DNA of 45,743 nucleotides from a virus, in the UHGV virus genome UHGV-0129770. The stretch is one strand, 5' to 3'. The position numbers were made by a program, and so were the translations under genes. The notes under the pieces are model-generated. The model was not told the origin of the DNA. It saw only the letters and a program-made list of their open reading frames with translations, and ran no database searches. Shown here in pieces: positions 14,355 to 22,224 of the stretch. Numbering within the stretch: position 1 is the stretch's first letter; each line of letters opens with the position of its first letter.

Positions 14355-14571
14355 GTAAACAAAATGAAGTTTTATGTTACAAAAACAATCAACTACATCA
14401 ACATGATTTAGGCCAAATTTCGGTCAAAAAATAAAATCCACAAAAAGTGGTTGACACTATTTTGGAAATCACAAACTGCACATAATCCATCGCGCTAACG
14501 GCTCCCGTTGAAGGTTCTTTTGACGATTAACTTTCAGCCGAAGCGCGGTAGGGAGTCATAACGCCAAAGCA

Positions 14572-14595
14572 GGCCGCCATGTGCGGCCTTTTTTT
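14572..14595 (+). terminator. intrinsic terminator-like hairpin in the leader of the 14623 gene
   Basis: GGCCGC-catgt-GCGGCC followed by TTTTTTT, located 28 nt upstream of ATG 14623. Confidence 0.5.
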
Positions 14596-14622
14596 GTATC
14601 CGTCATCCGTGGAGGAAGGACA

Positions 14623-15276
14623 ATGGAAAAGATCGCAATATTCAGCCTGACCACCAGCAAGCCTCAAATGCTCACTGCAATACTGAAAGACGGTGCTCTC
14701 ATTATTAACGAAGTAAAACCCCTTCCCGCGTCAGCATTGGAGCAAAAGCAAAAAATTCCTCCAGCTATAGCAGCCCTGCGGAAAAGCAAATTTAAGGTAC
14801 TGGTAGACGAAATTACGCCAACGATCTCCGCTGGCACCGGAGCAAGCCAGGTGACTCTCAAGACCCGTCATGCCGATGGCAGAGCAGCAATCATCGTCGG
14901 GATGGAAAGATACAGAGAGTTAAAACTCCAGAAGCTATTATCCCTGCCGCAAAATAACAAAGGTGCTTTCGAAATCCCCGACTCTATCGTTGATACCGAA
15001 TACAACGGTAACGGAGAAGAAGTCTACAGGGTGAACTGGCAGGATATCAGGCCGGAGCATATTCTGATGATCCTGTGTTGCTACGCGACCGTATACCACA
15101 ACGTTGCCAGTGCAGATTACGTAGAGCAGATGACCGGCACAGTCGAGAAAGAGCAAAAAACAGGCATACTCGCTTCGTTCCTGTCCATTATTGGGCATGA
15201 AAAAGTTAAAGCAGGCACCTCCCAGCCAAAGTCACTGGCTGGGAAAGAAGTTGATGAAGATACCGTGATACTTTGA
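14623..15276 (+). CDS. hypothetical protein
   Basis: ORF track frame; start moved to ATG 14623 (GGAGGAAGG SD) because the listed GTG 14581 start lies inside the terminator hairpin. Confidence 0.5.
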   Translation: MEKIAIFSLTTSKPQMLTAILKDGALIINEVKPLPASALEQKQKIPPAIAALRKSKFKVLVDEITPTISAGTGASQVTLKTRHADGRAAIIVGMERYRELKLQKLLSLPQNNKGAFEIPDSIVDTEYNGNGEEVYRVNWQDIRPEHILMILCCYATVYHNVASADYVEQMTGTVEKEQKTGILASFLSIIGHEKVKAGTSQPKSLAGKEVDEDTVIL

Positions 15277-15411
15277 TCACATTAGTAGCTTTGTTAACTC
15301 CCTCAATACCAGGTAGAAGAGTAACAAAAATATTGACGCGAGTATTTGAGTGGTCAATGAAGCGTTCATAAACAGATCAATTAGCATTAATAATTCGAAG
15401 ATAACATCCAT
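15277..15411 (-). CDS. small hydrophobic protein (44 aa), unlisted ORF; toxin-like
   Basis: Own translation: MDVIFELLMLIDLFMNASLTTQILASIFLLLFYLVLRELTKLLM; GGAG about 8 nt upstream; convergent with 14623..15276. Confidence 0.3.
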   Translation of the reverse strand: MDVIFELLMLIDLFMNASLTTQILASIFLLLFYLVLRELTKLLM

Positions 15412-15604
15412 GTCATTCACTCCGTTTAATTTTTAATCTAATGCCAGCAAATGAAGCTGGCCCCCGCATAAAGATTAATGAAAGTCACTTGTCACCAGTG
15501 AGGGGATTTATGAACCACATCCCCCTGAACTGGTGGCCTGTCTGTTTCTCGCATTTCACACCCTGCATACAGTTTTCCCCAGGTTATGACTGAGGGGCTT
15601 TGTT

Positions 15605-15934
15605 ATGGGCTATAGCAGACTCGACGATAGGTACATTGAAGACGATATTTTTCGTGCGCTGTTTCACCAGGAAATGATTAAGCGGGTATCGGAGTATCAC
15701 TCTGATAATTTCCAGTACACGATAAAGATTGATGAAGTATATCGTTCAGACCTTGCAGCCTACAGGGCGTATGGCAATGCAGATTTGCGCTGGGTATTCC
15801 GGGTGCTGGTGGGCCATGAGTCAGAAATGGAAGAAATGCCCACAGGGACCACGTTAACTCTTCCTGATGTGGCATGGCTGAGGAACAAGATCCGTGATTA
15901 CGCGAGCGCGGAACCGGAGATAGAAAATGCCTGA
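15605..15934 (+). CDS. hypothetical protein, first gene of a two-gene operon
   Basis: ORF track; 8-nt overlap with the downstream gene. Confidence 0.45.
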   Translation: MGYSRLDDRYIEDDIFRALFHQEMIKRVSEYHSDNFQYTIKIDEVYRSDLAAYRAYGNADLRWVFRVLVGHESEMEEMPTGTTLTLPDVAWLRNKIRDYASAEPEIENA

Positions 15935-17120
15935 TTTCCTGAAAAACCAGGACGGGCGCTATATCACTGACGGCCTGTCCTCTAAGGACTTCACGCGTTT
16001 ATTCGACCTTATCAGGAAAGAACAAACCCGTAAGCGCCGGCAAGCTCACCGGACGCTGACGCCAGGTAGACTGAGGAACAAATCCGCCGAAGATATTCTC
16101 AAGTTAGGGAAGAAAAAAGGCGGCACGTTCTTCACGCGAGACGACCTGAAAGGTTTCGAAAAGCTACGGAGTAAAACGCGCGAAAAATATGACAGCAAGA
16201 CGGCTGGCATCACATACGCCCAGCTGGTGGCATCCAGCCAGGCAATCGATATTAAGCGTGCAAATAACGCCGTGGATGACGGATCTGGTATCAAAAGAGC
16301 TACACCCGTATCTCTTCGCCACAATGTGATTAATATCCGCGTAGAAGCATCGGATATATCCGTCCACCAGCACCATATCGTCCGGATACGCTTTGAAGAA
16401 TGGGATCAGATGGTTGATGATATCGCAGAAGACGATAAATCAGCTCTCAAAATCACTAAATCACTGTGCGCCGGGCGAGTGTCTTTCGATTGTGACTGTG
16501 GTCGTCATCAATACTGGTATCGTTACATCGCCACTGCGGGTAACTTTGCCCTGGCACCGCCAAAAGAATACGCCTATCCAAAAGTTCGCAACCCGAAGCT
16601 GCAAGGCGTCGCCTGTAAACACGTGATCCACTCAATGACGCGGTTACAGTCCGCCAGTTGGCAAATGAGTATTGCTCGTGCGCTACAAAAGGCTGCAACG
16701 CAAATTGCATTTGGTGACGATCGCCGCCGTACAACCAAACACTTCTCAAAAGAAGACGAGAAGGAGTTTAATCGCAATCGTAGCAGTAAAACGAACGTTG
16801 ACGCTGCCAAGCGAGAATGGAGGCTCTATCAGAAGCGCCAGGCCGCTTTAAGCACAAAACTGGCAAAGGACAACGGCAAGATTGACAAGCTACGTGACCA
16901 ACTGACCAAGGCCAGAAAGTTGTCAGACGCACAGAAAAAACGGGCGGCAGCAAAAGAAGCGGCGTTGCAACGTGAGAAACAGAAAAACAAGGAGCTTCAG
17001 CAACGCCTGGCCGATCAGTTCGCACTGAAGAAGCAGGCGTTCATTGATGCGCTTGTCATGGCTGGAACACCACCAGCACAAGCTGAAAAAATGTTCATGG
17101 AGTATGTAAAAAAAGCATAA
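15927..17120 (+). CDS. SWIM-type zinc-finger protein with basic N-terminus and Lys/Ala-rich coiled-coil C-terminus
   Basis: CxCx(n)CxH pattern FDCDCGRH...GVACKHVIH; stop lies inside the convergent terminator stem. Confidence 0.5.
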   Translation: MPDFLKNQDGRYITDGLSSKDFTRLFDLIRKEQTRKRRQAHRTLTPGRLRNKSAEDILKLGKKKGGTFFTRDDLKGFEKLRSKTREKYDSKTAGITYAQLVASSQAIDIKRANNAVDDGSGIKRATPVSLRHNVINIRVEASDISVHQHHIVRIRFEEWDQMVDDIAEDDKSALKITKSLCAGRVSFDCDCGRHQYWYRYIATAGNFALAPPKEYAYPKVRNPKLQGVACKHVIHSMTRLQSASWQMSIARALQKAATQIAFGDDRRRTTKHFSKEDEKEFNRNRSSKTNVDAAKREWRLYQKRQAALSTKLAKDNGKIDKLRDQLTKARKLSDAQKKRAAAKEAALQREKQKNKELQQRLADQFALKKQAFIDALVMAGTPPAQAEKMFMEYVKKA

Positions 17121-17147
17121 ACCACACATAGCCTAGTAGTTTATGCT
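17114..17147. terminator. convergent hairpin between the SWIM operon and the AT-rich gene
   Basis: 9-bp stem AGCATAAAC / GTTTATGCT with a 16-nt loop, followed by a T-run. Confidence 0.4.
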
Positions 17148-17153
17148 GGGCTT

Positions 17154-17882
17154 TCATTTTTTTGAAAGATCAATTCCAGTATTATCAAACAAACTGGAAA
17201 TATCAGACACCAATTTATTAAAATGCTTGTCATCATTATAGAATGATGTGCTTTTTATAGCGACTATAAAATCACATAAATCTTGCGGAGATTCAATGCT
17301 AACCCCCTTATTTTTATATAGTTCAATAATACTGCCAACATCAGTATGCAATAGTTTTATCGCGCCACAAATTTCTCGCTGTTTCGTAACCAAGTCATTA
17401 AGTTTATTTTCATTTTCATCTAAGATTTGTTTTGAATATTTAGCGTCATTGGTTGCTTGATTTAACTTTGTTTTCTTTCTTTGCAATTCTATTCTTTTAT
17501 CATAATCAGCAACTTCATCTAAATATCTTATTTCAGTGTATAATTTACTTGTTAGCTTAGATATCTTCAGTGTGAGAACAGGAGCTAACACAGATGCAAA
17601 TACTCCATAAACAAATGGGATTACAACGTGATAAACCCACGGGGATACAATCCAATTATCAATGAACGGGACATTACCACCAACAGAAACAATAGATAAT
17701 GTATATAGGATGTCGTCCTTTGACTTTAATATAATTAAAATATCCTTCCAGTTAAAAATTAGAAATGAAATGACAACATATGCAAAAACCTTGTTAAATA
17801 TTTTATCTTTTATTATTTCAGAAAATGATTTTAGTTCTGTTTCATTTATAGACGGATTATCTTTAACTTTTTCTGACATCAT
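17154..17882 (-). CDS. AT-rich membrane protein with two TM helices and a coiled-coil tail; candidate abortive-infection or exclusion effector
   Basis: ORF track; markedly AT-rich by eye compared with flanks; TM segments VFAYVVISFLIFNW and VYHVVIPFVYGVFASVLAPVLTL; no recognisable family. Confidence 0.5.
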   Translation of the reverse strand: MMSEKVKDNPSINETELKSFSEIIKDKIFNKVFAYVVISFLIFNWKDILIILKSKDDILYTLSIVSVGGNVPFIDNWIVSPWVYHVVIPFVYGVFASVLAPVLTLKISKLTSKLYTEIRYLDEVADYDKRIELQRKKTKLNQATNDAKYSKQILDENENKLNDLVTKQREICGAIKLLHTDVGSIIELYKNKGVSIESPQDLCDFIVAIKSTSFYNDDKHFNKLVSDISSLFDNTGIDLSKK

Positions 17883-17903
17883 AGCTTATCCTGATTACTT
17901 TTA

Positions 17904-18104
17904 TTATGGATAGTTAAAAGATTCAACAGGTGATGGTGGTTGAATTGGGTAATGTTTCTTCTCGTACTCCTCAATGAGAAGACTCATAACCTCAAAGAAA
18001 TCACCTTCCGGAGTATTCATTTCCGGTTCGTTATCGAACATCGGTTCGACCGCACGCAGTGCGGCCTCATAATCTTGTTCTGTACGGATAGGTTTAATGT
18101 TCAT
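17904..18104 (-). pseudogene. truncated HigA-family antitoxin (N-terminal domain only, no HTH)
   Basis: IRTEQDYEAALRAVEPMF...PEGDFFEVMSLLIEEYEKKHYPI matches the N-terminal domain of HigA-type antitoxins as I recall them; ORF stops where the HTH should begin; no cognate toxin. Confidence 0.45.
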
Positions 18105-18117
18105 TAATTACAAAGGA

Positions 18118-18142
18118 AAGCCCACTTGCTAAGTGGGCTTTT
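18118..18142. terminator. bidirectional intrinsic terminator downstream of higA
   Basis: AAAGCCCACTT-gct-AAGTGGGCTTT flanked by an A-run and a T-run. Confidence 0.5.
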
Positions 18143-18160
18143 TGTATGTGTTTTACTATA

Positions 18161-18499
18161 TCAGGCTGCTTTTTTATTCAGGTTCCGCTGAGAAATAAAT
18201 TTTTCAGCAGTATTGATACGACTTAACTCTTCCTGAACGCGCATATCATTTTCGACTTCCCACAGATCTACTGCGGTCTGAAGATTAATCCAAAAATCTA
18301 CAGAAGTATCGAATGCTTTTGCCAGGCGATATGCCATATCCATCGTTAGCTTACGATTGTTATTAACAAGAGCACTTACGGTGTTACGATGAACATGAAG
18401 TATTTCTGCTAACTCGTTGATCTTCAGCTCTAACGGCTCCAGGTATTCGTACAGCAGGATATCACCTACGGTCGTCGGTTTTCTGGTTGCCTGTTTCAT
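18161..18499 (-). CDS. higA: HigA-type antitoxin (XRE-family HTH)
   Basis: GDILLYEYLEPLELKINELAEILHVHRNTVSALVNNNRKLTMDMAYRLAKAFDTSVDFWINLQ is the classic HigA/VapI HTH pattern; sits downstream of the toxin gene. Confidence 0.75.
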   Translation of the reverse strand: MKQATRKPTTVGDILLYEYLEPLELKINELAEILHVHRNTVSALVNNNRKLTMDMAYRLAKAFDTSVDFWINLQTAVDLWEVENDMRVQEELSRINTAEKFISQRNLNKKAA

Positions 18500-18569
18500 T
18501 TTTTGCCCTTACTAGCGTGCGTATTAAGTGGACTCTGGTCAGAACCCGGTCCGTAACCGGGTATCTGTT

Positions 18570-18872
18570 TTAGTATTTGTGAGGGTCGAGATACAAGTCC
18601 TCGGCCTTTCCGTTAACCCACTTAAAAATTAACCTATATTGCTTATTCACCCTTACTGATGAATAGCCATTTAGCTTCCCTGACAGTTCCTCATACCGAT
18701 TACCTGGTGGTGATCTTAAATCCTTACAGGTAGTTGCGGCATTGATAATGTCCAACTTCCGTGACAATCTCATATGAATATCAGGAGGTATCTTTCTATG
18801 TGGTGTTGAAAATTCAAAAAAATCATCAAGCCACGCATCCCTGAAATCCTTTATGTTAATTTTTTTGGTCAT
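18570..18872 (-). CDS. higB: HigB-type toxin (RelE/ParE superfamily killer protein)
   Basis: C-terminal half ...YRLIFKWVNGKAEDLYLDPHKY fits the HigB family; toxin-first operon order. Confidence 0.7.
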   Translation of the reverse strand: MTKKINIKDFRDAWLDDFFEFSTPHRKIPPDIHMRLSRKLDIINAATTCKDLRSPPGNRYEELSGKLNGYSSVRVNKQYRLIFKWVNGKAEDLYLDPHKY

Positions 18873-19022
18873 TAGTCATTTGATCCTCCGTGATGATTAC
18901 CGAATGCCATAACTATAGCGCACCGTTGCACTGTGCGCAAGTGCATTTTATGAATTCCCCCTCCTTCATCCAAAATCACAATCTCCAGAAAATCTTCCTT
19001 TCGATACCTGACAGATCGACCT

Positions 19023-19826
19023 TTGAGGATGCTTATGGGCCGTTTTGACGAATGGTTTGCTGACGATGCAAACCTGGCAAGTAAGGAGTCAGAACATGAC
19101 AGCACGCAGAGAGAAACGCCAGCGCCGATTGAAGCGAATGCAGGAGGCGCGCCGGAACATGGCAATACCGGTTCGGATTCATTCAGCATTCTGGAAGAGC
19201 AACCCGCCGCCCAAGCTGATAGCCATGATAATTTTGCTGATAGCAACGGTGGCCTTACTCCGGATGCTGGCGAATCAGATATAGCCATACTTCCATCTTC
19301 CCTGGCTGGCAGAGAACCGACTCCACAGTTAAAAGCACGCTATAACGGGCATAAAGCCTTTAACGACCAAATCCGCGCAGACTGGATGCTGATTATTGAA
19401 TCCAGCCCAGACGCGTTTCAGGCTCTCTTATATCGACCAGATGTTGGCACATATGGGGTAGTCAGCGACGAAACAGGAGAAGAGTCATTCACTGAACTGG
19501 ATAACAACCAACGCGAACTGACTTACCAGGAACCTGAAATCGTTTATGTGCTGGATAACCCTGACGGGCGTGACTCTTTCCATGCGATTGACGCAGACGG
19601 TGAGCAGGATGGCTTAACCGATGATGTTCTGATTCTGCGTATTGCAGCAAATAACGTCCCCGTCGGCTCAATTCTTGAATGGAATGAAGAGATGGTAAAC
19701 GGCGTAGCGCGCCGCTGGTGGTACGTGCACCGTATTTTTAGCTACGGCACACAGCATGTTGGTTCGCTTTACTACTGCATACCTGCCAGGAATTTTGATA
19801 CGACTCAAAACGGAGTGATCGAATGA
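19023..19826 (+). CDS. hypothetical acidic protein (start uncertain)
   Basis: ORF track; a 62-aa TM-containing ORF in another frame (ATG 19097, AAGGAGT SD) overlaps the low-complexity N-terminus, so the true start may be downstream. Confidence 0.35.
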   Translation: MRMLMGRFDEWFADDANLASKESEHDSTQRETPAPIEANAGGAPEHGNTGSDSFSILEEQPAAQADSHDNFADSNGGLTPDAGESDIAILPSSLAGREPTPQLKARYNGHKAFNDQIRADWMLIIESSPDAFQALLYRPDVGTYGVVSDETGEESFTELDNNQRELTYQEPEIVYVLDNPDGRDSFHAIDADGEQDGLTDDVLILRIAANNVPVGSILEWNEEMVNGVARRWWYVHRIFSYGTQHVGSLYYCIPARNFDTTQNGVIE

Positions 19827-20590
19827 CTTCAAATAAAACCCTCCTGGCGCGAACAGGTGAATGGCAAACCTCACGCACAGGAAAATTCCAGACCACGGGC
19901 TTTGAAAACGTGGATAACGCGTTTGCGACGCTAATCAGCAACATTTTTTCTGATATCTTACTGGTGGCCCCCGCGCCGGAAGAAAAACGCTTTGCGTCAT
20001 TCCTGAATCGTCCACCAGCAGAGCGTGTCTATGTGGCCCGTTTCGACAATGCGATCGAGTTTCTTAAAGCAGTTCGTCGCGCAAATGCCGGGCAAGGGAG
20101 AAAACCTGAAAACCAGAACATTAACCGGGATGCTCTCCCCCTGGTCAATATCTCACGCACTATGGATATCAATTATATCAACGATGATCAGCAGATTGAC
20201 CGCAAAAAAGTAGCCAGTTTTTGCGAACCGGATACCGGAATGCCTTTAGCAGAACTGGAATACACCCAGGCCATTCTGACGTATGACGTTACGTTAATGG
20301 CAACTGATAAAGCGACCATGAGTCTGATGTGTAATTCGCTGGGCGCACGGCTTCGCCTGATGACAGGTACACAATTTGAAGCAACCACTCACCTTGTTCG
20401 TGTCCCGGTCCCGCTGATTTGCTCGATACAGGATGCCAAAGAAGTCGGATTTACGGATGTTTCGGCACCAATTGGAGAAGAGCGTATTTATGCCACACAA
20501 GCGCCGATAAGTGTGATTGCAGACGTGATCACAGCATGGGAGTTGGACGCAAAACGTATTATTACCGAAACCTCGATATCTATGGGGTGA
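19823..20590 (+). CDS. hypothetical phage protein
   Basis: ORF track; 4-nt overlap coupling with neighbours. Confidence 0.4.
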   Translation: MTSNKTLLARTGEWQTSRTGKFQTTGFENVDNAFATLISNIFSDILLVAPAPEEKRFASFLNRPPAERVYVARFDNAIEFLKAVRRANAGQGRKPENQNINRDALPLVNISRTMDINYINDDQQIDRKKVASFCEPDTGMPLAELEYTQAILTYDVTLMATDKATMSLMCNSLGARLRLMTGTQFEATTHLVRVPVPLICSIQDAKEVGFTDVSAPIGEERIYATQAPISVIADVITAWELDAKRIITETSISMG

Positions 20591-20593
20591 TAA

Positions 20594-21574
20594 GTGGCCC
20601 AGGAGTTACAACAATATTTTCTACAGTCAGTGCTCATTAACGATAACAAAGTGCCACGAGACTGGATTTTTACCGCAGTATATGTAGAAAAAACCAGCCT
20701 CAAAGCCCCCTTGCTAAAACTGGAAATTCATGACGCTACCGGCACCGTAATTGATGACTGGAAAGCCAAATACGGTGCATCGCTGGTGGCTGAAATGGGC
20801 GATCCAAACGGTAATGCAGGCACTTTTAAAACAGATTTCTTTGTTACGTCTGCAATGCTGGCTGGTGATGTTGTTACCGTTATTGCTGTCAGTGAAGACG
20901 TGCGCAGGTTTAAGATCCCCTCCCCGCGCACAAATTTACATACCAACAAAACACCAGACGCTATATTCAAGGCATATTCCGGCAAACTTAAAATTACCAG
21001 CAGCGTGCTAAAACGCGCAGTTACATATCATCTGAATGCCGGTGACAAACCGTCAAAAATGCTTTCGGAGATAGCGCGAGACAAAGGTGCATTGTGTTGG
21101 GTATGTCGGGGGGAATTTAACTTTTACACCCTGGCTGATCTGATGAAGCAAACGCCATCATTTACCTACGAGGGGAATAACCCTAAAGCAGAATACACTT
21201 TGTCAAAAATGCGCCTACTCCAACAGGAACATGCGACAACAGCAAAGAATCAATATCGTTTTGTTGGGTATTCCATGACCGATGGCTACGTCGAATATGG
21301 CGATAGCTCACTCCCAGTGCGTTATATATCCGACTCTGATATGGAAACTCTTCGCAATATGCAGCTGTCTCTCGTCCCCAAAATGGATATAGAAGTCGCA
21401 GGCAATCCTGATATAAAACCGGGGATGGTGATAGAGATTATCGTATACCGCTATGACCAGGAAAACCGCATTGATGAATCAATGCCCCGTAAGCTGATAG
21501 TAAAAAATGTTGCGCACTTTGAAGACCGCGTAGGCTACACAACACGAATGATATTGGGAGTGCCGAACAAATGA
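20594..21574 (+). CDS. hypothetical phage protein, possibly baseplate-associated
   Basis: ORF track; immediately precedes and overlaps the spike-like gene. Confidence 0.35.
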   Translation: MAQELQQYFLQSVLINDNKVPRDWIFTAVYVEKTSLKAPLLKLEIHDATGTVIDDWKAKYGASLVAEMGDPNGNAGTFKTDFFVTSAMLAGDVVTVIAVSEDVRRFKIPSPRTNLHTNKTPDAIFKAYSGKLKITSSVLKRAVTYHLNAGDKPSKMLSEIARDKGALCWVCRGEFNFYTLADLMKQTPSFTYEGNNPKAEYTLSKMRLLQQEHATTAKNQYRFVGYSMTDGYVEYGDSSLPVRYISDSDMETLRNMQLSLVPKMDIEVAGNPDIKPGMVIEIIVYRYDQENRIDESMPRKLIVKNVAHFEDRVGYTTRMILGVPNK

Positions 21575-22224
21575 AGCGTAGAGCGCAAATTGTTGGAACT
21601 GTGCACCCGGCAGGGCTTATGCGTGCTCAAGTCCGTGTTTTACCTGACTGGAATGGCGTTCCTGATGACGATCTACCCTGGGCGGAATACCTGTTACCCA
21701 TCGGAAACGCTTTTGTACCCACAGTCAAAGGTGACCTGGTCTGGGTAGAGTTTCCTTATTTAGATGTTAACGGTCGAATAGACACCAGACGCCCAATGAT
21801 AGTTGGTGCCGCTCAGGATGCACCGGGAGGAATTCCAAACGTTGCACCAGAAGCATCTGGCAAAGGCAACGGCTGGACGCCGCCGGAAGTAGATGGAGCG
21901 CCTCCCCGCCCCCAAATCTCAGCAACGAAAGACTTCGTTATTCACCGCAACAATATTCTTGAAGTACGAACTGCTGGTGGCGGCTATGAAATTGCCAATA
22001 CGGCTGCAGGCTCAAGGATTGGCATGAATGAGTCCGGGCAGATATATATCATTGGTCCGGCTGATGTAATCGTGAATGCAGGAGGGAGTGTTAACGTCAA
22101 ATCAGCCAACAACATCAATGTTAAAGGGGAAAATATTGCTGTCTCCGCTAACGGAGACATAGCTTTCAAGGCAGGAGGAACCTTTCAGGCCACTGCTAGC
22201 AACTTCGATTTCAAGAAAGGATAG
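21571..22224 (+). CDS. baseplate spike-like protein (gpV/gp5-type N-terminal domain, C-terminal beta-helix repeats)
   Basis: N-terminal AQIVGTVHPAGLMRAQVRV...DLVWVEFPY and C-terminal repeats VNVKSANNINVKGENIAVSANGDIAFKAGG. Confidence 0.45.
   Translation: MKRRAQIVGTVHPAGLMRAQVRVLPDWNGVPDDDLPWAEYLLPIGNAFVPTVKGDLVWVEFPYLDVNGRIDTRRPMIVGAAQDAPGGIPNVAPEASGKGNGWTPPEVDGAPPRPQISATKDFVIHRNNILEVRTAGGGYEIANTAAGSRIGMNESGQIYIIGPADVIVNAGGSVNVKSANNINVKGENIAVSANGDIAFKAGGTFQATASNFDFKKG

Follow-up and report, generated by a model that had tools for sequence, protein, structure and literature searches.

Positions 17904..18104 (minus strand) of a 45,743-nucleotide stretch of viral DNA (UHGV virus genome UHGV-0129770, hereafter the window) hold an open reading frame of 66 codons with an ATG start and a TAA stop at 17904-17906, which raises the question of whether this is a small gene in its own right or what is left of a larger one and, in the latter case, of how the remainder was lost. 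A sequence-only reading had taken the ORF to be what remains of a HigA-family antitoxin gene of two domains, its 3' part probably lost through the arrival of an AT-rich neighbour. The truncation is borne out by homology to D6 orf72 and by the PDB, PADLOC and PHROGs comparisons given below, and the remnant is an ordinary pseudogene, already annotated as such by NCBI: in the window-type plasmid p1_035148 (NZ_CP029365.1) the identical ORF is marked by PGAP/RefSeq as a pseudogene ('helix-turn-helix domain-containing protein; incomplete; missing C-terminus'). The reading that we favour, with a probability of roughly 0.88, is that this pseudogene results from two successive cassette replacements in a hypervariable accessory slot of a D6/P1-like phage-plasmid. 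In the following, higA2 designates the full-length gene behind the remnant and higB2 its partner toxin gene.

The higA2 remnant, its truncation point and its family

The region under study matches Escherichia phage D6, a P1-like plasmid prophage, and judged from this homology the window is a D6-like phage-plasmid. Four minus-strand genes are flanked by homologues of the P1 tail genes 25 and 7, and at the position of the remnant D6 carries orf72, a protein of 119 aa annotated as a HigA family antitoxin, followed by the AT-rich orf73. When compared with the window by tblastn, full-length D6 orf72 matches with 91% identity over residues 1-65 (E = 1e-37), so that the remnant is a true homologue and a chance ORF is excluded. 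Indeed, over higA1, the adjoining hairpin and the remnant up to codon 54, window and D6 do not differ (the DNA of codons 1-54 being 100% identical to that of D6 orf72), codons 55-60 carry three substitutions, and similarity is then gone. By blastn the homology breaks off at window position 17923, which corresponds to codon 60/61, and the two blocks aligned with D6 (window 17923-21600 at 99.4%, and window 14501-17813 at 92.9%) are separated by 109 bp in the window and by 309 bp in D6. The part of the remnant that is homologous to D6 orf72 comprises codons 1-60 (18104 down to about 17924, minus strand) and the junction-derived part codons 61-66 with the stop (17904-17922, minus strand), the final 5-6 residues (SFNYP) and the stop codon being unrelated to the orf72 sequence. 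In full-length D6 orf72 the Pfam HTH_3 domain covers residues 63-115; as homology ends at codon 60/61, the remnant ends at the domain boundary, just where the HTH domain had been expected to begin, and the alignment with full-length antitoxins that had been proposed as a check sets the truncation point at residue 60/61 of 119. The G+C content of the remnant is 0.415 and that of the flanking tail genes about 0.5.

Scans of the 66-aa product against Pfam and NCBIfam gave no match, and its likeness to the N-terminal part of HigA proteins is shown through D6 orf72, PDB, PADLOC and PHROGs. A PDB search relates residues 6-112 of D6 orf72 to the E. coli/Shigella HigA chains 5IFG_B and 5YCL_A (E = 8e-8), and the toxin encoded upstream of full-length copies belongs to PF09907 (E = 3e-34) and matches the HigB chains 5IFG_A and 5YCL_B (E = 1e-7). 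On the PADLOC profile PD-Lambda-2_B the remnant falls on positions 1-65 of 402 (E = 2.5e-16) and D6 orf72 on positions 1-119 (E = 4e-43), while the remnant gives no NCBIfam match to TIGR02607 (antidote_HigA), which describes HigA of the Rts1/Proteus vulgaris type. The AlphaFold model of the 66-aa product has a mean pLDDT of 86, with values of 88-95 over residues 1-50, and predicts two helices (9-24 and 32-51) that form a hairpin. In a fold comparison with the PDB, the three best matches of this model are all HigA chains from HigBA complexes of E. coli (probabilities 0.97, 0.90 and 0.63), and their E-values are weak, as expected given 45 aligned residues; the model superposes on the HigA chains of these complexes with an rmsd of 2.0 Å over 45 columns.

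Taken by these relationships, the remnant is the 5' half of a higA gene of the E. coli K-12 type. It retains the N-terminal helical homology of such antitoxins, the C-terminal Xre-type HTH domain (PF01381) being absent from the 66-aa product and the matching DNA missing from the window, and in the place of a cognate PF09907 HigB it has HigA1 and HigB1 upstream. The absence of a matching toxin gene ahead of the ORF had been remarked from the sequence alone and it holds: the upstream pair is of another family, and tblastn with HigB2 found no PF09907-type toxin anywhere in the 45.7-kb window (best E = 0.35), a statement that refers to this half of the roughly 90-kb element.

Recombination boundaries on both sides of the remnant

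On the downstream side, the AT-rich gene (17154..17882, minus strand; 242 aa; G+C 0.25-0.35) is a divergent allele of D6 orf73, with 71% nucleotide and 59% amino acid identity, and falls in PHROG 8191, of unknown function. It adjoins the remnant, as had been observed, the distance being 21 nt and not 20 nt. Window and D6 are essentially identical to about 17100, where gene 25 ends, and again from 17923 on; in between, the AT-rich gene is 56-84% identical along its length, and 17814-17922 is unalignable. This last segment (17814..17922, minus strand), 109 bp without D6 homology, stands in for 309 bp of D6, in which the HTH half of higA2 is followed by a spacer of 63 bp and by the start of orf73 (its first ~23 codons). 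From this segment come the last codons and stop of the remnant, the spacer of 21 nt, in which an AGGA ribosome-binding site lies, and 23 codons at the start of the AT-rich gene. As read from these alignments, the AT-rich gene was exchanged for a divergent allele, with the right junction inside higA2 and the left one at the end of gene 25. The truncation had been attributed to an insertion or replacement by the AT-rich gene: a recombination junction does lie beside that gene, and the event reads as an allele swap rather than an insertion. In D6 and in p95_MLI121 the AT-rich gene coexists with full-length higA2, and therefore its presence as such is not the cause of the truncation. Elements that lack the AT-rich gene had also been suggested for comparison, and in these (pTB423, our locus L005, and loci L022 and L024) a 119-aa gene indeed stands behind a PF09907 HigB.

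An exact 30-mer of the 109-bp segment matches only nine contigs in IMG/VR, all of which carry the truncated type, and no GTDB species-representative genome. A protein-guided scan of genome contigs with the AT-rich protein gave no match, and a search with the same protein matched only 'hypothetical proteins' of E. coli P1/D6-like elements. These searches having turned up no donor for the AT-rich allele or the 109-bp segment, the mechanism of the junction is one that we infer.

Several features of the AT-rich gene and its surroundings deserve mention. Read by eye, the 242-aa sequence shows two hydrophobic stretches, near residues 32-52 and 83-105, and after them a coiled-coil-like region. It gives no match in Pfam or PADLOC, the family being met only in P1/D6-like elements, and the slot that it occupies is hypervariable, with alleles ranging from 36% to 100% amino acid identity among such elements (L016-L026, L049-L051). 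A gene for exclusion or defence is suggested by the low G+C content, the membrane character and the turnover of alleles beside toxin-antitoxin modules. The left boundary of the swapped cassette coincides with a terminator-like hairpin (17130-17152, plus strand) that follows immediately on tail gene 25, and identity to D6 falls from 100% to about 85% at about 17100-17125.

Besides this downstream scar, a second one, taken to be the older, sits upstream of the remnant. In D6-type and window-type elements a cassette (18112..18972, minus strand) made up of a promoter region, higB1, higA1 and a hairpin replaces higB2 and its promoter. HigB1 (18570..18872, minus strand) is an intact toxin of PF05015 (HigB-like_toxin; E = 5e-35), not the partner family of the remnant, and HigA1 (18161..18499, minus strand; 112 aa) is an intact antitoxin of the Rts1/Proteus type, with an HTH_3 domain and a TIGR02607 score of 102.5 bits against a cut-off of 47.7. 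The cassette ends in a G+C-rich hairpin (18117..18141, minus strand), terminator-like on both strands and situated 12 nt upstream of the remnant ATG, which has a folding energy of -17.9 kcal/mol (z = -3.9; 0 of 200 shuffles fold as well). An Rfam scan of 16800-19300 gave only sub-threshold matches, to the terminator hairpin, and no RNA gene therefore accounts for the region. Homology to higB2-type loci (L004/L005) restarts 7 nt ahead of the remnant ATG: the ancestral 'GGAGTAAATCATG', which contains the ribosome-binding site and the higB2 stop codon, has become 'CCTTTGTAATTAATG' in the window and in D6, with the hairpin directly before it, and the ancestral GGAG ribosome-binding site is gone from both. 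The replacement of K-12-type higB2 by the Rts1-type higB1-higA1 module extends exactly up to the higB2 stop codon. The substitution of higB1-higA1 for higB2 is a toxin-antitoxin cassette exchange in one slot, from which a full-length orphan antitoxin remains in phage D6. We also considered HigA2 as a second antitoxin for HigB1 and rejected it, as the intact copies outside the D6-type arrangement (IMG/VR loci) all stand directly behind a PF09907-type HigB2.

The same slot between tail genes 25 and 7 was surveyed in E. coli plasmids and IMG/VR contigs, and its alleles form a series. The simplest state consists of higB2-higA2 only, with higA2 of 119 aa (pTB423; L022 and L024), and the next adds an AT-rich gene of 243 aa (p95_MLI121). 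The HigB2 of p95_MLI121 has the accession WP_000692028.1, and a full-length HigA2 is found under WP_001022419.1. In D6 and AR_0119 we find higB1-higA1, full-length higA2 and the AT-rich gene; in the window type higA2 is truncated; and in TUM12355 (plasmid pMTY12355_3, NZ_CP134379.1; L006, 3906-5235) the truncated copy is in turn split by an IS3-family element at window positions 17999-18004. A derived AGT codon (Ser41) is common to the window and D6, the higB2-linked copies all having TGT or TGC (Cys) at this place, which indicates that the truncation arose on a D6-type background, after the toxin had been replaced; it is from this codon that we infer the order of the two events.

The proposed course of events would then be as follows. 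The ancestral operon would have been higB2-higA2, a PF09907 toxin gene followed by a translationally coupled antitoxin gene, in which the toxin and its promoter would have been swapped for the unrelated higB1-higA1 module with its terminal hairpin terminator, leaving a full-length orphan higA2 without a ribosome-binding site, that is, the state seen in phage D6. In a second step, the downstream gene for a putative membrane/coiled-coil protein, the AT-rich one, would have been traded for a divergent allele, with the left crossover at the end of gene 25 and an illegitimate right junction at codon 60/61 of higA2. The HTH half, responsible for DNA binding and dimerisation, would thereby have been lost, and the N-terminal helical hairpin fused to 5-6 foreign codons and a stop. 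Read in this way, the locus is a clean and datable case of toxin-antitoxin cassettes replacing one another in a single accessory slot of P1/D6-like phage-plasmids.

Decay and prevalence of orphan copies

The fate of the antitoxin gene with and without its toxin was surveyed in 73 IMG/VR higA2 loci. In 47 of these higB2 lies directly upstream, and all higA2 copies but one are intact (46/47, 118-140 aa), the single broken copy having lost 1 bp in an A-run. Without higB2 (26/73 loci) only five copies are intact and 21 truncated. The lesions of the orphan copies are independent of each other. Nine loci share the window junction, L049 has a nonsense change (CAG>TAG) at position 69, L050 has a +1 frameshift at codon 52, and a group of phages of ~56 kb has ORFs that measure 86, 59 and 37 aa. 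Four truncated homologues on long contigs were looked up, and all are either orphan or beside a truncated toxin gene; a truncated copy in Photorhabdus adjoins a 5'-deleted toxin gene, and one in a conjugative element lies beside a toxin remnant. As far as such comparisons go, the pattern is that expected for an antitoxin which has turned neutral after the loss of its toxin, and the locus illustrates how an antitoxin gene decays once that has happened. The homology, both junctions, the allelic series and this pattern of decay are established at the level of sequence.

Related debris is met in other places. The chromosome of E. albertii GCA_005404405.1 carries, between dinQ/gor and slp (L094, 1002-2099), a 1.1-kb piece of a D6-like phage-plasmid that is 92% identical to window 19100-18006 and runs from the 5' end of gene 7 through higB1, higA1 and the hairpin to codon 33 of higA2. 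It ends at window position 18006, 2 bp from the IS3 target site of pMTY12355_3 (17999-18004), a closeness for which the action of an IS element, or a local hot spot close to the small hairpin at 18008-18026, may be responsible. A higA2 remnant of 56 aa, with no toxin nearby, lies in the ybaB-recR spacer of an enterobacterial chromosome (JGI metagenome contigs L092/L093, 2001-2171). In a group of IMG/VR phages (L064, L067-L073, L078 and L079, most of 44-57 kb), orphan remnants of 86, 59 and 37 aa stand beside an oppositely oriented HigA1-like gene and, by eye, near tail-fibre-like ORFs, and in L064 a pair of HigB1/HigA1-like ORFs (also by eye) follows the remnant; this group appears to represent a parallel turnover of toxin-antitoxin cassettes that left antitoxin debris behind.

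Of 5426 complete E. coli genomes, 95 have the locus, each in a single copy and each on a plasmid. Within these 95, higB2-higA2 accounts for 19, the orphan full-length gene for about 25 and the IS-split copy for one, the truncated type being the commonest allele with 50. No genome among the 5426 E. coli RefSeq genomes combines higB2 with the truncated copy. The arrangement of the window, over 100% of a 1461-bp query, recurs in 50 complete E. coli genomes and in 70 PLSDB plasmids (E. coli, Salmonella, Shigella), and the truncation junction can serve as a lineage marker for these widespread D6-like plasmids. The predominance of the truncated type may be due to selection, or to its having hitch-hiked with the AT-rich allele to which it is linked. 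In the window-type copies examined (n=11) the ORF is open throughout, with three variable sites in 201 bp, two of them synonymous and the third E20K, to be compared with six variable sites in 339 bp of higA1, the 11 copies being too alike for a selection test to have power either way. In this comparison the seeming differences of L009 in higB1 and the flanks, artefacts of a 1-bp indel that shifted its upstream alignment, were disregarded. On the D6-type background, three independent lesions (codons 52, 60 and 69) all spare the N-terminal hairpin, which is not significant (roughly p = 0.2), lesioned copies having been searched for with the N-terminal part as query.

Expression, possible function and known relatives

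That the remnant may still be expressed as a domain fragment had been suggested from the sequence alone; efficient expression seems unlikely, in view of the lost GGAG and of the terminator-like hairpin 12 nt ahead of its start. It has no Shine-Dalgarno sequence, and no promoter-like site was found on the minus strand between higA1 and the remnant, the total of the scan not exceeding that of shuffled sequence. The apparent motif TTGAAT...TAATAA, which was created by the junction, was rejected by eye as a promoter for its poor -10 hexamer and 14-nt spacer. The AT-rich gene has a good AGGA ribosome-binding site and no predicted promoter of its own, and the most plausible role of the remnant DNA is a passive one, in that transcription of the AT-rich gene would pass through it as a portion of the leader. 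The remnant itself is most likely selectively neutral, its DNA being probably carried as leader or spacer ahead of that gene. A function of its product is unlikely given the lost ribosome-binding site, the hairpin, the want of a promoter-like site, the foreign tail and the copy split by an IS element; the ORF would be at best weakly translated and would have no function of its own.

Among the other explanations, the one that fares best, improbable though we hold it to be, makes the remnant a mini-antitoxin or anti-addiction factor: expressed by read-through, the hairpin would bind HigB2-type toxins, block post-segregational killing and so help to displace rival P1/D6-like elements that carry higB2-higA2. 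Such competitors are real, since elements of the same plasmid family with the target toxin occur in 19 of the 95 E. coli genomes; the fragment is predicted to fold alone, and its model superposes on the N-terminal region of HigA from the E. coli HigBA complexes, and in the unrelated VcHigA2 the N-terminal peptide alone neutralises the toxin (PMC5416850). Moreover, no allele is more frequent than the truncated one, and every window-type copy seen has the ORF open; were the explanation true, displacement of incompatible rivals would account for this frequency. It is opposed by the missing ribosome-binding site together with the terminator-like hairpin 12 nt upstream, and by structural data on E. 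coli HigA, in which helices alpha1-alpha4 reportedly serve dimerisation and alpha3-alpha6 contact the toxin (PMC7340258): these contacts reach beyond the retained part, so that the hairpin would hold at most part of the toxin interface. Furthermore, the tail of the protein derives from the junction, in one plasmid that is otherwise intact the ORF is interrupted by an IS3 element, orphan copies elsewhere have decayed to 37-59 aa, and the 11 near-identical window-type copies give no detectable signal of purifying selection. The fragment would be of biological interest only if it neutralised the HigB2 of rival plasmids.

More improbable still is a complete and independently conserved family of small proteins, which the sequence-only reading had named as the outcome that would overturn it. 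The 66-aa product does match PHROG 10398 from end to end (E = 1.6e-42), a profile of exactly 66 positions, and forms a 66-aa cluster of 10 members (P0001) in our protein collection. However, the first 66 residues of D6 orf72 match the same PHROG (E = 4e-40), and as the start of a 119-aa protein matches it equally well, the family is a collection of the truncated allele; PHROG 10398, a public phage protein family of 'unknown function', appears to consist of the truncated pseudogene product. The 66-aa copies are at least 97% identical, come from one locus of one plasmid family and share one junction 30-mer, and their tail residues and stop codon are non-homologous to every relative. Those relatives that have higB2 upstream, at 43-94% identity, are all of 118-140 aa, and the ones below about 90% identity with the toxin upstream align over the HTH region of D6 orf72. 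A 66-aa protein of Photorhabdus has another tail and a 5'-deleted toxin gene adjoining it. With a single junction, at least 97% identity and full-length toxin-linked relatives, this challenge to the truncation fails, and for annotation the 66-aa ORF and PHROG 10398 are to be taken as a pseudogene fragment, not as a small-protein family or a second antitoxin. Least probable of all is an error of sequencing or assembly that hides a full-length gene, for although truncated ORFs of small size in the protein search are often due to short contigs or to errors in homopolymers (e.g. L052), nothing specific points to this here, the identical arrangement in the 50 complete E. coli genomes and 70 PLSDB plasmids comes from many laboratories and platforms, and the gene is missing its 3' half rather than carrying a frameshift.

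As an antitoxin pseudogene, the remnant can be set beside several known systems. The closest is D6 orf72 itself (ASR76362.1; in RefSeq e.g. WP_044868318.1, a 119-aa 'HigA family addiction module antitoxin / HTH domain-containing protein'), which has the same locus, upstream cassette and hairpin, and differs in having kept residues 61-119 with HTH_3 and in carrying another AT-rich allele downstream. HigA (YgjM) of the E. coli K-12/Shigella HigBA system (YgjN-YgjM; 5IFG, 5YCL, 6JQ4, 6KML) resembles the full-length relative in its N-terminal helical part and C-terminal HTH, although sequence identity is only about 24% and the K-12 protein has about 18 extra N-terminal residues; compared with it, the window ORF lacks both the HTH half and the toxin gene.

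Orphan antitoxins with an 'anti-addiction' role are another point of reference, the chromosomal ccd of Erwinia chrysanthemi reportedly acting in this way against the ccd of F (work of Saavedra De Bast et al. in 2008). The likeness lies in a toxin-less, antitoxin-derived ORF on a mobile element that competes with relatives bearing the intact module. To our knowledge, the anti-addiction modules described so far are complete antitoxins for which neutralisation was demonstrated, whereas the window ORF is without half of the protein and without translation signals.

In PD-lambda-2 (Vassallo et al. 2022, PMC9519451), component B joins a HigA-like HTH to a peptidase of the ImmA/IrrE type, and its N-terminal hairpin and HTH are, by the PADLOC profile, the same module as in D6 orf72 and the remnant. 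It differs in its length of about 400 aa, in the peptidase domain and in being accompanied by a HigB-like protein and a third component, none of which occurs in the window; with 1-65 of 402 profile positions and no peptidase, HigB2-like or third component, the remnant does not belong to this group. Vibrio cholerae HigA2, to which the remnant has no detectable sequence relationship, is built on a similar plan, with an N-terminal toxin-neutralising part followed by a C-terminal HTH domain for dimerisation and DNA binding, and its isolated N-terminal peptide inhibits the toxin in vitro (PMC5416850). The N-terminus of the V. cholerae protein is intrinsically disordered, whereas the window fragment is predicted to be a folded helical hairpin.
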